From Planctomycetaceae bacterium (lineage in GTDB: Bacteria > Planctomycetota > Planctomycetia > Pirellulales > PALSA-1355), in NCBI GenBank assembly GCA_005773095.1, contig SXHT01000107.1:1-61615 (forward strand): DNA of 61,615 nt, in the 5' to 3' direction. Below are positions 16,241-18,901 of the stretch, one piece after another (the stretch's first letter is position 1; each line of letters opens with the position of its first letter). The position numbers and the translations under genes were made by a program. Below the pieces are notes generated by a model. That model searched no databases and was not told the DNA's origin. It saw only the letters and a program-made list of their open reading frames with translations.

Positions 16241-16894
16241 TCACTTCTCGGTCACGTTCGCTGCTTTGACAAGGCTGTTGGGGTACTTGGTTACGGTGTC
16301 CCAGGCCAGTTCTTGCAATGAGCGGTTGAATTTGTCATCCCACGCTTCCCGTTTGGCGTTTTTCAACTTTGAGGGCATCGGTAAATCCACCGGGCTTTGA
16401 CCATAAAGAACTGCAAAGTGCATGTAGGCATTGAGGGCTTCCATTGGAGCCGAAGGATGAACGGCATCGACAAACAGTTCGCCTTGTTTCTTCAAGCCGG
16501 GCTATTCCATGTTGGCGATCTTTGTCCGCAGCGTCGTCATCGCTTGTGCGGTGGGAACCAAGGCGACGATTTTCTTGCCTCGACCGTACTTCTTGTTGAT
16601 GTCCTCGGCTTGAGCTTCCCCTGCCTTGATGTTTCGCTCGAAGAGGGTCTTGAGTTGTTCCGGTGTTTTCTCTTTATCCACGTTGTCGAACGCTCCCTTG
16701 GGGAAATCCTGGTTATCGATGTCTCCACCACCCCAAGAAAGCTGAACAATGAACCGCATGTCGGGATTGTGTTCCAGTCCCAGCTTGACGTAATTCTCAA
16801 TACCCTCATCGGGGAACGAAATTGGCGACATGATAAAGACATCGACCTCGCCCGACTTGAGGGCCTTCTTTGCCTCATTCTTGTCGTCGGGCAC
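16241..16894 (-). pseudogene. N-terminally truncated SGNH/DUF4886-like gene with an in-frame TAG (16502-16504)
   Basis: ORFs 16502-16894 and 16241-16495 are in the same frame and separated only by TAG-CCC-GGC. No signal peptide or N-terminal part is present. The 5' end abuts the SUI1 domain end at 16894. Confidence 0.55.
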
Positions 16895-17652
16895 CCGCCA
16901 ACCCGTTTCACACGATAGCCCATGCCTTCGAGTTCAGAAATGATCCGTCCACGCTGATCACCCTGAATTTCGATTCGACTATCCTTCACCGTTCCGCCTG
17001 TGCCACACCGTTGCTTGAGTGTGGATGCAAGCTCATGTAGACCCGCTGCATCAAGGGGAACATCGAATACCGTGGTCACGCCCTTGCCACGTCGGCCTTT
17101 CGTTTCTCGACCGACTTTTATGACGGCACCGTTTGGCTTTGACGATTTGCCTTCATGCTTGGGAGCAATCTCCTCCGCTACAGGTTCCTGCGAGCGCGGT
17201 TCACGCCGCTTGCCACCGCTGAGTAATCGGGCAGTCAGGTCCATGACTTCGCTTTCGATCAGACCGAATATCTCCGGGGCATCTTCAACTTCCCAGAACT
17301 CGACTTTATCGATCCAATTCGGATGTCGCTCTTCAAACAGAGGCAGATGCTCGGTTTCTTGCAGGGCGACAATGTAATCAGCCCTCTCAAAATCTTCTGT
17401 GGTGACTGGTGCAGGAAAACGAGCGAATTCTTCGGCGGCTCGTATTTCCTTTTTCTCCAATTCCTTAATGGCTGATTTCGCCATTGGTCCGACATTGCCC
17501 AAGCCTCGTTCTAAAGCCAATCCTCTGGAAATTGCCCGCCAATTCAGCCCGAACTTTCCGGCGACCGAGTTGAAAAGGACTTCCGCAAATCGACTGCGGT
17601 AGTAGTTGCCCGTGCAAAGGAACAGGACGGACTTTTCGCTTCGTTTCGCCAT
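16537..17652 (-). CDS. low-molecular-weight phosphotyrosine phosphatase/ArsC-type domain fused to a SUI1/YciH translation-factor domain; the last ~118 codons are probably read-through
   Basis: P-loop LFLCTGNYYRS plus EVEDAP (aa 1-146). A linker follows, then the SUI1 domain VIKVGRETKGRRGKGVTTV...CGTGGTVKD..IEIQGDQR...YRVKRVGG, which ends exactly at nt 16894. The next codon is TGC where a stop would be expected. Confidence 0.75.
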   Translation of the reverse strand: MAKRSEKSVLFLCTGNYYRSRFAEVLFNSVAGKFGLNWRAISRGLALERGLGNVGPMAKSAIKELEKKEIRAAEEFARFPAPVTTEDFERADYIVALQETEHLPLFEERHPNWIDKVEFWEVEDAPEIFGLIESEVMDLTARLLSGGKRREPRSQEPVAEEIAPKHEGKSSKPNGAVIKVGRETKGRRGKGVTTVFDVPLDAAGLHELASTLKQRCGTGGTVKDSRIEIQGDQRGRIISELEGMGYRVKRVGGCPTTRMRQRRPSSRARSMSLSCRQFRSPMRVLRITSSWDWNTIPTCGSLFSFLGVVETSITRISPRERSTTWIKRKHRNNSRPSSSETSRQGKLKPRTSTRSTVEARKSSPWFPPHKR

Positions 17653-17749
17653 CTTTGCGATGCCTTCGCCTTGTGGAATAGAGACACTTTTGACCGTCTC
17701 AAAATACCATATACTGCTTACCGAGGAACAACCCTAAAGGTCGATACGA

Positions 17750-17848
17750 ATGACTGACATCCCAACCCGTGAAACGTTCGAAAATCTCTATGCCGGCAGA
17801 GCTCCTTCCGGCCTGAGCCGTACTACGATATGCCTGCCCACATCTTAA
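17750..17848 (+). pseudogene. 32-codon remnant resembling the N-terminus of a class I SAM methyltransferase
   Basis: MTDIPTRETFENLYAGRAP... resembles the F..LY.....PWD start of such methyltransferases, but it diverges and stops at 17846-17848. Confidence 0.25.
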
Positions 17849-17995
17849 CCGTAGGTGCAGGTGTTGGGCAGCCACTTCCACGGGACTGATTTAATTTGTC
17901 TTCCGATTCCTTTCCTCGAATAATCCTTCGGGTGAACCGATGCCCTCGTCTGCGTGTCTGTTAAAAGACACATTCCCTTCCCAAGGAGGTTCATT

Positions 17996-18901
17996 ATGTC
18001 CATGACCTTGCCCAAGCTGCGTATTGGCGAACCGATTTGCCACGAATCCTTGTCAGTTTTTCCCCTGTTCTCCGAGCCGGATGGCAAGGTCGATTACCGA
18101 CTCTTTACCGAGGCCCTGGCAGATGAGTCGGTCACCGTGGAAGAGGTCAGTGAGGGTGGTTCGGTCCCGGATTTGCTCGTGGAGAATAAGGGCGATAGCC
18201 GACTGCTGTTCTTGGAAGGCGAAGAATTGATCGGTGCCAAGCAGAATCGAATCCTCAATACGTCTGTGCTGGTTGCAGCCCACACGAAGATCAAGATTCC
18301 GGTTTCCTGCGTTGAACAAGGCCGCTGGCGATACAAGTCCCGATACTTCGGATCGAGTGGATCGCATTCGCCATCGAAATTGCGGCGGGCACTCAAGGCA
18401 TCCGTGAGCGATTCAGTGCGTGCAAAGCGAGGACACTCATCGGATCAGGGTGCCGTGTGGCAGGAAGTCGCTTTCCTCAATGCTTCGCATGGCGTGGACT
18501 CGGAATCACTTGCAATGTCGGATACCTTTGACACCTACAAAGATCGCATTGCCGAGTATCGCACCCGACTGCCTTATGTGGAAGGAGCGACTGGCTTGGC
18601 CGTCGCTGTCGGCGGGCGGATTCAATCGGTCGATTTGTTTGACAAACCCTCAACTTGCCAGAAAGTGTGGGACCGGCTGCTTTCCGGTCTCGTGTTCGAT
18701 TCACTGGAAGCCGGACCTACCGATCAAATTGTCTCGGCAGCGGATGTCGAGCAGTTGCTTGGCACCAATCTGAGTTGGGAGCAAACAGCAGCGGTTGGAG
18801 AGGGAGAGGAGTACCGTTCGAAGTCACCACAAGGCGATCATGCTTCTGCCCTGGTCTTCGAGGGGTCGGTCGTACATGAAAGTGTCGTGGCGGCGGTCTG
18901 A
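17996..18901 (+). CDS. ARPP-1 (formerly DUF6569)-like protein
   Basis: AGGAGG RBS then ATG at 17996. The pattern LSVFPLF...YRLFTEALADESVTVEEVSEGGSVPDLLVENKGDSRLLFLEGEELIGAKQNRILNTSVLV...IPVSCVEQGRW matches my recollection of the DUF6569/ARPP-1 family. Confidence 0.65.
   Translation: MSMTLPKLRIGEPICHESLSVFPLFSEPDGKVDYRLFTEALADESVTVEEVSEGGSVPDLLVENKGDSRLLFLEGEELIGAKQNRILNTSVLVAAHTKIKIPVSCVEQGRWRYKSRYFGSSGSHSPSKLRRALKASVSDSVRAKRGHSSDQGAVWQEVAFLNASHGVDSESLAMSDTFDTYKDRIAEYRTRLPYVEGATGLAVAVGGRIQSVDLFDKPSTCQKVWDRLLSGLVFDSLEAGPTDQIVSAADVEQLLGTNLSWEQTAAVGEGEEYRSKSPQGDHASALVFEGSVVHESVVAAV

Follow-up and report, generated by a model that had tools for sequence, protein, structure and literature searches.

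Two divergently oriented genes, one joining an LMW-PTP-like domain to a SUI1/YciH domain (PTP-SUI1) and the other encoding an ARPP-1 protein, lie next to each other on a planctomycete contig. Do they constitute a functional system, as a preliminary description of the locus had proposed, or are they neighbours by chance? The question was addressed in the whole stretch of DNA analysed (61,615 nucleotides, referred to as the window) and by comparison with loci of other genomes. The coordinates of all features are collected in Table 1.

Table 1. Features of the PTP-SUI1/ARPP-1 locus, with positions in the window
Feature	Position	Strand	Basis
LMW-PTP + SUI1/YciH fusion gene: conserved coding portion of 253 codons, ending ...KRVGG	16894..17652	-	Pfam LMWPc and SUI1
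LMW-PTP-like domain, residues ~7-146	17215..17634	-	Foldseek; catalytic residues invariant in alignment
P-loop CTGNYYRS of the fusion gene	17593-17616	-	
D124-A-P126 loop of the fusion gene	17275-17283	-	
Linker, residues ~147-176, disordered, poorly conserved	17125..17214	-	Low pLDDT and variable alignment columns
SUI1/YciH domain, residues 177-253, with basic loop GRETKGRRGKGVTT and CGTGGT motif	16894..17124	-	Pfam SUI1, PDB 1d1r, Foldseek
Rearrangement joint	16891..16900	-	DNA alignment with L002/L003; downstream protein homology begins at the same bases; Logan contig
TGC in place of the relatives' stop TGA	16891-16893	-	
Read-through tail, 118 Arg/Ser-rich codons and stop, out of frame over the remnant of the next gene	16537..16893	-	ORF list; homologues stop at VGG
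Pseudogene remnant of an uncharacterised ~300-aa family, 5'-truncated	16241..16894	-	Homologue alignments
Divergent spacer, 343 bp, GC 0.50	17653..17995	.	Between fusion and ARPP-1 starts
Intact gene for a 301-aa ARPP-1 (PF20208/DUF6569) of a stand-alone planctomycete subfamily	17996..18901	+	Pfam
DUF4291 gene, predicted diphtheria-toxin-like ADP-ribosyltransferase family; listed as context, not as a demonstrated member of the pair	20292..20927	-	Pfam E 5e-60

Domains of the fusion protein

The product of the minus-strand gene matches two Pfam families: LMWPc (PF01451) at residues 9-101 (E 1.5e-9, 38.7 bits against a cut-off of 23.2), with only positions 1-88 of the 144 in the profile covered, and SUI1 (PF01253) at residues 177-246 (E 3.9e-15, 56.5 bits against 25.5), with positions 4-76 of 77 covered. 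The catalytic motifs C13-T-G-N-Y-Y-R19-S20 and W-E-V-E-D124-A-P126 are both present, and the description of the gene as a complete Cys-X5-Arg phosphatase (CTGNYYRS, EVEDAP) joined to a complete SUI1 domain was thereby borne out. For the N-terminal domain, Foldseek ranked YwlE, LMW-PTPs and ArsC highest, at a probability of 1.0, with E values as low as 1e-9 and a target-normalised TM of 0.65-0.74. In the AF2 model, D124-A-P126 is located between a strand (117-120) and a helix (126-145), and from this position, rather than from a residue-level structural alignment, we infer that it would be the counterpart of the DP loop with its general-acid Asp.

Assignment to the thioredoxin-coupled arsenate reductases was considered and rejected. 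The second and third catalytic cysteines of pI258 ArsC are Cys82 and Cys89; in the domain studied here, 27 aligned homologues contain no further conserved Cys, and the NCBIfam model PRK13530 gives 16 bits (cut-off 215).

The two domains are connected by a linker previously described as basic and ~30 aa long. The length is correct, but the charge is mixed (7 K/R, 5 E). In the AF2 model its pLDDT is ~31, with values <50 over residues 151-174. The SUI1 part is matched by E. coli YciH (PDB 1d1r; E 6e-25 by sequence, 51% identity by Foldseek), and the loop GRETKGRRGKGVTT of its basic beta-hairpin loop 1 aligns with RQTSGRKGKGVCL of YciH. As the fusion protein remains below the NCBIfam YciH equivalog cut-offs (TIGR01158, 92.2 against 111.65; PRK06824, 97.8 against 145; PRK09019, 83 against 142), these models rule out canonical YciH, and the C-terminal part is best described as a YciH-like domain.

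Conservation of the PTP-SUI1 family

Database searching with the fusion protein gave 3752 matches, of which the best 120 all combine PF01253 with PF01451, are ~250 aa long and end in ...RVGG. The combination had been called unfamiliar, and rightly so, as full-text literature searches found no paper on LMWPc+SUI1 or on the P-loop motif CTGNYYRS. It is not unique to the window: 44 distinct full-length loci were found elsewhere in a species-level genome collection, the family occurs mostly in planctomycetes that carry Gemmatales name labels, and the suspicion that the fusion was a deletion artefact can be dismissed, the deletion at this locus having hit the stop codon instead. The viral contigs searched contained no PTP-SUI1.

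The window gene is collinear with 26 homologues of 248-253 aa, which all end in VGG and differ by no more than scattered linker gaps of 1-5 residues, and C13, R19, S20, D124 and P126 are invariant in the alignment of 27 homologues. Substitution ratios between the window gene and its closest relatives, L002 and L003 (dN/dS 0.11-0.14), show long-term purifying selection on the fusion gene. Judged by these comparisons, PTP-SUI1 is a genuine, complete, uncharacterised and widely conserved domain combination, and its N-terminal domain is a distinct LMW-PTP subfamily with the P-loop CTGNYYRS.

The complete Cys-X5-Arg-Ser and Asp set is kept in 29 of the 40 species-level members of the family. Cys13 and/or Arg19 have been lost in 11 of the 40, which retain a domain of fold length and invariant SUI1 motifs; the SUI1 basic loop and the CGTGGT motif are invariant or nearly so in all 40 members. 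Because the losses of Cys or Arg leave the SUI1 motifs unchanged, catalysis appears dispensable in about a quarter of PTP-SUI1 lineages, and the SUI1 part appears to be the constant core. On the other hand, stand-alone PTP homologues have the identical P-loop and the complete catalytic set without exception (35/35), which, together with the 29 complete fusions, argues for catalysis in most lineages.

A GIY-YIG gene and a gene for an 84-aa protein occur beside PTP-SUI1 in 13 of the 44 loci, a synteny seen at the family level only. The neighbours of the stand-alone PTP homologues showed nothing consistent.

The ARPP-1 gene and its surroundings

The ARPP-1 identity proposed for the plus-strand gene stands, as its product matches the profile at positions 1-296 of 297 (E 3.1e-98, 329 bits against a cut-off of 27). 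Homologues of 301-303 aa set the start at ATG 17996, so that the divergent spacer is exactly 343 bp, as stated in the preliminary description. C105 (PVSCVEQ) and Q83 (AKQNR) do not vary among 26 homologues and would, we infer, be the absolutely conserved Cys and Gln residues described for ARPP-1 (PMC9503650). The planctomycete clade evolves slowly (81% mean column identity), and the homologues at 66-77% identity to the window protein have unrelated neighbours. The AF2 model (pLDDT 88.7) found no PDB match by Foldseek (best E 0.22), and the viral contigs yielded a single partial ARPP-1 only. Synteny with a giant gene, as in loci L085-L088, was considered and discarded: the giant proteins share one 171-aa stretch only, at 39% identity.

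One weak sigma-70-like match is located in the spacer and does not exceed shuffle expectation; promoter and terminator scans remained at background level, and an Rfam scan gave two tRNAs and no other element. The two genes lie in a low-GC variable region by a giant RHS-repeat protein, in agreement with the earlier view that the region is decaying. Neither a direct repeat of the tRNA-Val 3' end nor an integrase was found at the island edges. Between 15.7 and 21 kb of the window there are no ARG, rhodanese-phosphatase, calcineurin, HD, HAD, WYL, HIRAN or PF01522 deacetylase partners, the island contains no Macro or NUDIX genes, and none of the 7 island proteins searched against PADLOC-DB 2.0 gave a match with E up to 0.01.

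Gene neighbourhoods in other genomes

The LMW-PTP/ArsC fold is separate from the rhodanese-phosphatase fold. This bears on the claim that the ARPP-1 family is defined by linkage to ARG and to exactly the kind of phosphatase fold present here: the ARG part is correct, but the published definition names the rhodanese-phosphatase superfamily, for which calcineurin-like, HD or HAD phosphatases substitute (Iyer, Burroughs, Anantharaman & Aravind 2022, PMC9503650).

ARPP-1 was absent within 10 kb on each side of all 44 PTP-SUI1 loci and from all 82 PTP loci; conversely, no PTP- or SUI1-like ORF was detected in any of 86 ARPP-1 loci (480 kb of flank, searched by tblastn and HMM). The nearest relatives of each gene, at 74-83% identity, have different, unrelated neighbours. 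Distant ARPP-1 members adjoin WYL regulators (15 loci) or ARG (2 loci), in line with PMC9503650, and the recovery of these partners validates the neighbourhood method. Since ARPP-1 never neighbours the fusion elsewhere in the sample, the neighbourhood comparison indicates that PTP-SUI1 and ARPP-1 are not a two-gene system. The divergent pair had been put forward as such a system, with a search for co-occurrence across genomes as its check and a lack of conserved linkage as a ground for refuting it; by that standard the proposal fails.

A DUF4291 gene is situated 1.4 kb from ARPP-1. The DUF4291 family has been predicted to be a diphtheria-toxin-like ART, and its members have Macro, NUDIX and ARG genes as neighbours (PMC12522546). 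Its candidacy as a conserved third partner was rejected, as it was not found in the 170 other fetched loci and adjoins neither ARPP nor LMW-PTP in three plasmid loci. PTP-SUI1, ARPP-1 and DUF4291 place three genes of predicted phosphate/ADP-ribose chemistry in 4 kb, a coincidence that is hard to quantify.

Damage to the window copy and its origin

The preliminary description overlooked that the fusion ORF has no stop codon at 16894. The 3' end of the gene reads GGC GGG TGA in relatives and GGC GGG TGC CCG in the window; owing to the change of TGA to TGC at the joint, the ORF extends by 118 codons, out of frame, across a pseudogene truncated at its 5' end and runs to 16537, which gives a protein of 371 aa. 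In the DNA alignment, homology to L002/L003 ends at ...GGCGGGTG, and the flanks beyond are unrelated. The ORF was not called in the annotation of the source contig.

The pseudogene remnant begins at homologue residue ~93 and is interrupted by an in-frame TAG at 16502-16504, and thus carries two lesions; its homologues, of 240-450 aa, align from their own residues ~84-100 onward, and it has no Pfam match. Insertion of PTP-SUI1 into this downstream gene is ruled out, as the window contains no copy of the 92 N-terminal codons that the remnant lacks. An assembler artefact was likewise rejected: the joint is found at 100% identity in a contig (L170) of Logan SRR8894379, produced by a second assembler, although both assemblies may come from the same reads. 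A deletion or recombination joint would have taken the stop codon and joined the fusion out of frame to the truncated pseudogene.

GC3 of the fusion gene is 0.52, against 0.71-0.77 (about 0.72) in the backbone. This low value suggests that a Pirellulales-like host probably gained the gene by horizontal transfer, a reading drawn only from composition and MAG name labels. The window copy departs from its family at nearly invariant positions, e.g. G225S, L106F and D123E. No frameshift or premature stop interrupts its 253 conserved codons, and in the alignment it retains all the invariant residues. The copy encodes a protein extended at its C-terminus, or else it is a young pseudogene.

Possible role and alternative explanations

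We consider it probable that the locus contains two independent conserved genes adjacent by chance, one encoding a putative YciH-type, 30S-tethered Cys-phosphatase and present as a damaged foreign copy, the other a stand-alone ARPP-1. The suggestive adjacency of a Cys phosphatase to the 'phosphatase-associated' ARPP-1 dissolves under cross-genome neighbourhood comparison. Proteins of the SUI1 family bind rRNA and the anticodon stem-loop of the P-site tRNA through the basic loop (PMC7114459). The SUI1 domain of PTP-SUI1 would dock via this loop at the 30S P-site/platform, like YciH, eIF1 and aIF1, and a flexible tether of ~30 residues would link it to the LMW-PTP domain, so that docking keeps the phosphatase near a ribosome-bound phospho-substrate. 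Alternatively, the PTP-like domain might sense a phospho-ligand or a redox signal and modulate initiation; the 11 of 40 members devoid of catalytic Cys/Arg speak against dephosphorylation as the essential activity.

Going further is speculation, and we would rather bet against it. PTP-SUI1 might represent a new kind of translation-initiation regulator, in which the YciH-like module delivers a Cys-phosphatase to the 30S P-site in kinase-rich Gemmatales, where initiation would be tuned by phosphorylation; in a quarter of lineages the module would deliver a pseudophosphatase or phospho-sensor instead. The horizontally acquired window copy could even have been recruited, with ARPP-1 and DUF4291, to ADP-ribose/phosphate signalling on the ribosome. 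If the family-level reading holds, bacteria would have, for the first time, an enzyme wired directly to an eIF1/YciH ribosome-docking domain, and PTP-SUI1 would provide a handle on two poorly understood questions, the role of YciH-type factors in bacteria and the possible control of planctomycete translation initiation by phosphorylation on Tyr, Arg or Ser. The catalytic Cys has been lost repeatedly in the family, a natural experiment that splits catalytic from scaffolding roles.

Other explanations concern the functions of the N-terminal domain, of the window copy and of the locus as a whole. Instead of a protein phosphatase acting at the ribosome, the N-terminal domain might be a regulatory sensor of a ligand or redox state (e.g. 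arsenate, phosphate, thiol state) that switches a YciH-like activity, or might have a small molecule or the end of an RNA as its substrate. This we regard as rather unlikely. The loss of Cys13 and/or Arg19 from a domain still of fold length beside an invariant SUI1 part would fit such a role, as would the Tyr-Tyr pair of the P-loop, which is not known from the LMW-PTP, YwlE or ArsC signatures, and the ArsC structures among the Foldseek matches. However, the catalytic set is complete in most fusions and in every stand-alone homologue, a second conserved Cys for the thioredoxin-coupled ArsC cycle is lacking, and the match to the arsenate reductase model is negligible. Somewhat short of an even chance, in our estimate, is the case that the window gene is simply dead, the stop loss and the 118-residue junk tail inactivating or destabilising the protein, with nothing functional at 16537-17652. 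Its stop was lost at a rearrangement joint adjoining a pseudogene with two lesions, the ORF is uncalled, residues depart at nearly invariant positions, and the gene has a foreign composition in a decaying stretch. Against this, the reading frame and all invariant residues are intact over 253 codons, the dN/dS values indicate constraint over nearly the whole history of the gene, and an extension past the terminal GG need not abolish the folding of either domain.

Finally, PTP-SUI1, ARPP-1 and perhaps DUF4291 might form a lineage-specific conflict module that processes ADP-ribose/phosphate and is directed against the translation apparatus, with LMW-PTP in place of the rhodanese-phosphatase, HD, HAD or calcineurin-like phosphatases of ARG-centred ARPP systems. 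The proposal draws on the definition of ARPP by ARG and phosphatases of several interchangeable folds (PMC9503650), on the proximity of DUF4291, a predicted ART with the neighbours named above (PMC12522546), and on the low-GC variable setting by the RHS-repeat protein. We find it highly improbable: co-occurrence is nil in 44 fusion, 86 ARPP-1 and 170 DUF4291-scanned loci, the closest relatives of each gene are found without the others, the island has no ARG, WYL, HIRAN, Macro or NUDIX genes and no PADLOC match, the stop codon of the fusion gene is gone, and the planctomycete ARPP-1 clade evolves slowly, unlike conflict genes.

Comparison with known systems

As in ARG-centred ARPP systems and ARPP two-gene neighbourhoods, the window contains a genuine ARPP-1 in which the conserved Cys and Gln are present, and a Cys-dependent phosphatase gene happens to adjoin it. 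It differs from them in having no ARG, rhodanese-phosphatase, WYL, HIRAN or deacetylase partner; moreover, its phosphatase is of the LMW-PTP fold, which was found beside ARPP-1 nowhere else in the sample, and its ARPP-1 belongs to a stand-alone, slowly evolving clade.

With the LMW-PTP/YwlE/ArsC family (PF01451) the N-terminal domain has in common the fold, a Cys-X5-Arg-Ser P-loop at the N-terminus and an Asp in the loop that precedes the final helix. The P-loop is C-x-G-N-x-C-R-S in LMW-PTPs, CTGNTCRS in YwlE and CTGNSCRS in ArsC, whereas that of the fusion is CTGNYYRS. The Asp loop of the fusion is D-A-P, without an aromatic pair, the ArsC Cys pair is absent, and the domain is joined to SUI1.

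The C-terminal 87 residues of the fusion align with E. coli YciH (PDB 1d1r) end to end, the two share the basic loop GR(R/K)GKGV, the CG(T/C)GG motif and the terminal GG, and in both a disordered segment precedes the SUI1 domain on its N-terminal side. In contrast to YciH, the fusion carries a 146-residue N-terminal LMW-PTP domain, falls below the equivalog cut-offs and is not part of a pyrF-yciH type operon, its neighbours being variable.

[quoted passage not shown] PTP-SUI1 follows the same principle of accessory domain, linker and C-terminal SUI1. However, the accessory domains of DENR and eIF2D are zinc-binding or MCT-1-binding, or PUA and SWIB, and none is a phosphatase-type enzyme; the evolutionary connection to PTP-SUI1 is limited to the SUI1 domain.

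Conserved fusion family with a damaged local copy

The two divergent genes of the low-GC island, which the preliminary description had regarded as a possible uncharacterised two-gene system, are in our judgement probably chance neighbours, one of which is the damaged local copy of a conserved fusion family. A Pfam profile search with residues 1-253 of the minus-strand product confirmed the pairing of LMW-PTP and SUI1 domains (LMWPc, E 1.5e-9; SUI1, E 3.9e-15; both exceed the curated cut-offs), and the two motifs quoted earlier, CTGNYYRS and EVEDAP, are both found in the sequence. 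Only the gene end placed at 16894 did not stand, as there is no stop codon at this position: in the ORF list of the window, the minus-strand frame extends from 17652 to 16537 (371 aa).

The AlphaFold2 model (pLDDT 78.7) comprises two folded domains with a disordered link between them (residues 151-174, pLDDT ~31). Using Foldseek, the N-terminal domain was matched to YwlE, LMW-PTPs and ArsC (probability 1.0, TM 0.65-0.74) and the C-terminal domain to E. coli YciH (1d1r, 51% identity), also matched in a profile search against PDB sequences (E 6e-25). D124-x-P126 lies in the loop that connects the final strand to the final helix and, judging by this position, would be the site of the LMW-PTP general-acid Asp. 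A thioredoxin-type ArsC identity was rejected, since the second conserved Cys is absent and the protein scores 16 bits in NCBIfam vs. a cut-off of 215. The fusion also scores under the NCBIfam YciH equivalog cut-offs, and for this reason it is named "hypothetical" in public annotations.

A search of 5.8 billion proteins yielded 3752 matches to the fusion. The best 120 of these share 64-83% identity with it, contain both Pfam domains without exception (120/120), are mostly 245-257 aa long and, where a taxon is named, belong to Gemmataceae. A one-genome-per-species scan gave at least 541 coding matches among at least 599 pattern matches, and 80 loci were kept; a full-length fusion is encoded in 43 of them, mostly from Gemmatales and Gemmataceae MAGs and including Zavarzinella formosa and MAGs labelled Fimbriiglobus and Limnoglobus. 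With L002, a locus of one of the closest relatives, this makes 44 distinct fusion loci (L001 and L003 are one contig). In a 27-sequence alignment, the invariant residues are C13, R19, S20, D124 and P126 in the phosphatase part, and G181-R-E-T, G186-R-R-G-K-G-V-T-T and C216-G-T-G-G-T in the SUI1 part, while every protein ends in ...K(R/H)VGG. Against the two nearest relatives (81-83% identity), the window copy has a dN/dS of 0.11-0.14, a sign of purifying selection. The caveat that the fusion might itself be a deletion artefact is refuted by this conserved two-domain family.

Phosphatase domain and loss of catalytic residues

Stand-alone homologues of the phosphatase domain (35 found, 144-176 aa) are encoded by many Nostocales cyanobacteria and by MAGs labelled Verrucomicrobiota, Alphaproteobacteria, Anaerolineae and Planctomycetota. 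All 35 have the exact P-loop CTGNYYRS in common with the fusion, whose phosphatase domain belongs to a distinct subfamily; no literature on stand-alone PTPs with this P-loop was found. Their loci lie within the fetched set L045-L082 (e.g. L048, 5187-5603), and in five cyanobacterial ones a small membrane protein gene is located 3' of the PTP gene.

Both Cys13 and Arg19 are kept in 29 of the 40 species-level fusion proteins. One or both are gone in the other 11 (loci L026, L030, L032-L034, L038-L040, L043, L050 and L053), which often lack the Asp as well; P-loop variants include LFVGVSNLRRGR in Fimbriiglobus-labelled MAGs and LFLDTIDGERAR in a Limnoglobus-labelled MAG. These 11 proteins look like pseudophosphatase versions, which suggests that catalysis is dispensable in some lineages, and, because all 40 proteins retain the SUI1 motifs with little or no change, the SUI1 module would be the constant core of the family.

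Features of the window
Feature	Position	Strand	Remarks
Type II/IV secretion ATPase	13317-15041	-	T2SSE, E 4e-93; N-terminal universal stress protein (Usp) domain
Further island genes	15869-16195 (+) and 18975-20212		TfoX_N-domain gene, 113-aa protein, 102-aa ORF, BV97_02767-family membrane protein
Pseudogene remnant	16241-16894	-	starts at homologue residue ~93; in-frame TAG 16502-16504; no Pfam match
PTP-SUI1, conserved part	16894-17652	-	253 codons
ARPP-1	17996-18901	+	PF20208
DUF4291 gene	20292-20927	-	Pfam E 5e-60; 1.4 kb from ARPP-1
Giant ORF, 10,950 aa	21608-54460	-	DUF6531 and RHS repeats (E 1e-109) in last 4000 residues

Lesion and origin of the window copy

Where the relatives read GGC GGG TGA GCC TCC, the window reads GGC GGG TGC CCG ACG, and the similarity stops there. 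From the same bases onward the homology is, in another frame, to an uncharacterised ~300-aa family, of which the middle and C-terminal two thirds are present, and the fusion ORF itself runs on through 118 Arg/Ser-rich codons. This pseudogene remnant bears two lesions, the 5' truncation and the in-frame TAG, and its missing 92 N-terminal codons are absent throughout the 61.6-kb window. Its full-length homologues have, by eye, a hydrophobic, signal-peptide-like N-terminus. Since the homology switches at the same bases and 92 codons are missing, we infer that a deletion or an illegitimate recombination left a joint at 16891-16900, at the cost of the final stop-codon base, the DNA between the two genes and the 5' part of the second one. 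A possible trace of microhomology is the W-x-x-P spacing over this joint. The joint is identical in the Logan assembly of run SRR8894379, and the fusion ORF is not called in the gene annotation of the ENA contig. Over 20.9 kb, the window and ENA contig k141_1885481 differ at two positions, 11001 and 11038, both in tRNA-Arg CCT (10995-11068), where the window has C and the contig G and A.

The region 15.6-21.6 kb, which follows tRNA-Val, has a GC content of 0.50-0.56 vs. ~0.60 in the flanks. GC3 of PTP-SUI1 is the lowest among the measured window genes (0.52), that of ARPP-1 is intermediate (0.60) and that of backbone genes 0.71-0.77; in the closest relatives, the GC content of the fusion is in line with that of its surroundings. 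The best named relatives of a backbone helicase are Pirellulales and Pirellulaceae MAGs (72-75% identity), and the same holds for ARPP-1, while a neighbour-joining tree nests the fusion clade within Gemmataceae-labelled sequences. The low GC3, the Pirellulales backbone and the Gemmataceae-nested tree make it plausible that a Pirellulales-like host acquired the fusion gene horizontally. The local representative of this architecture is thus a stop-less and probably foreign copy.

ARPP-1 and its genomic neighbourhood

The identification of the plus-strand ORF as ARPP-1 was borne out over its full length (Pfam E 3.1e-98). The length of its homologues, 301-303 aa, identifies ATG 17996 as the start, so that the divergent spacer of 343 bp holds. 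For the confident AlphaFold2 model (pLDDT 88.7, pTM 0.88), Foldseek retrieved nothing significant from the PDB (best E 0.22). Mean column identity within the planctomycete clade is 81% (26 sequences), a conservation that is unusually high for a supposed conflict gene.

By tblastn, the window ARPP-1 had no match in 82 fusion or stand-alone-PTP loci with two flanks of up to 10 kb each. The reciprocal sample of 86 ARPP-1 loci with 480 kb of flank, assembled from three close-homologue look-ups and one metagenome scan, contained no PTP- or SUI1-like ORF detectable by tblastn (E threshold 0.01), or by unfiltered HMMs for the two domains (best E 0.098). With no co-occurrence in either sample, the proposed pairing as a system is not supported, and the nearest relatives of each gene lie among unrelated genes: DUF202, transposases, DUF6933 and small hypothetical proteins for the fusion, and IS66 transposase and nuo genes, Sua5, or hemerythrin for ARPP-1 (74-77% identity; Lignipirellula cremea and planctomycete MAGs). 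The HTH-WYL-WCX regulator adjoins ARPP-1 in 15 more distant loci and an ADP-ribosylglycohydrolase (ARG) is present in two; both associations match those of Iyer et al. 2022 (PMC9503650), and their recovery indicates that the neighbourhood method detects published associations. None of the defining ARPP partners (ARG, rhodanese-phosphatase, WYL, HIRAN, PF01522) occurs in the island, and PADLOC gave no match.

The LMW-PTP fold is separate from the rhodanese-phosphatase superfamily. The preliminary description had ARPP-1 defined by linkage to "exactly this kind" of phosphatase; however, the partner named in PMC9503650 is of the rhodanese-phosphatase superfamily, for which calcineurin-like, HD or HAD enzymes may substitute.

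In 13 of the 44 fusion loci, mostly Gemmataceae-labelled (e.g. L005, L006, L011-L013, L036, L044), GIY-YIG and/or a conserved 84-aa protein (no Pfam match; consensus ...DPxFTFRFADDRIIPRFHLEGV...) is encoded on the same strand as the fusion, usually just downstream, which may reflect local synteny, not a functional operon.

A further gene of the region, outside the pair, is DUF4291, predicted in a 2025 survey to be a diphtheria-toxin-like ADP-ribosyltransferase (ART) family with NUDIX, Macro, ARG and PTS_2-RNA neighbours (PMC12522546); at the three proposed motifs, the window protein reads HAY, WIK and AIQ. The closeness of a predicted ART-like gene to ARPP-1, whose predicted substrates are ADP-ribose-derived sugars, hints at a shared theme and could be taken as the sign of a lineage-specific functional module. 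We consider such a module very improbable, however, as none of the 170 other fetched loci (1.9 Mb altogether) contains DUF4291, three plasmid DUF4291 loci contain neither ARPP nor LMW-PTP (one has a macro-domain neighbour), and the main text of PMC12522546 mentions no ARPP, LMWPc, SUI1 or any phosphatase.

Among the remaining island genes, that of the 113-aa protein gave a weak winged-helix match. This protein, the 102-aa one and the BV97_02767-family membrane protein have no relatives among the fetched loci, and the TfoX_N gene has one, in the fusion locus L006. Outside the island, the giant ORF resembles a Rhs-type polymorphic toxin and has a tandem 33-nt duplication (21610-21675) at its extreme 3' end, while the Usp and T2SSE pair of the secretion ATPase is an unusual fusion.

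Possible role of the fusion

The fusion is an uncharacterised, though already sequenced, domain architecture of the YciH/SUI1 kind. It might act as a YciH-type 30S factor bearing a phosphatase on a flexible ~30-residue tether, and the tethered phosphatase would then work on a ribosome-proximal phospho-substrate; we propose this specific mechanism tentatively, giving it somewhat less than even chances. Alternatively, where the Cys is gone, the phosphatase domain could be a phospho- or redox-sensing regulator. The known SUI1-fold proteins eIF1, aIF1, YciH, DENR and eIF2D touch rRNA and the anticodon stem-loop of the P-site tRNA with a basic loop (PMC7114459), which the SUI1 domain of the fusion possesses as well.
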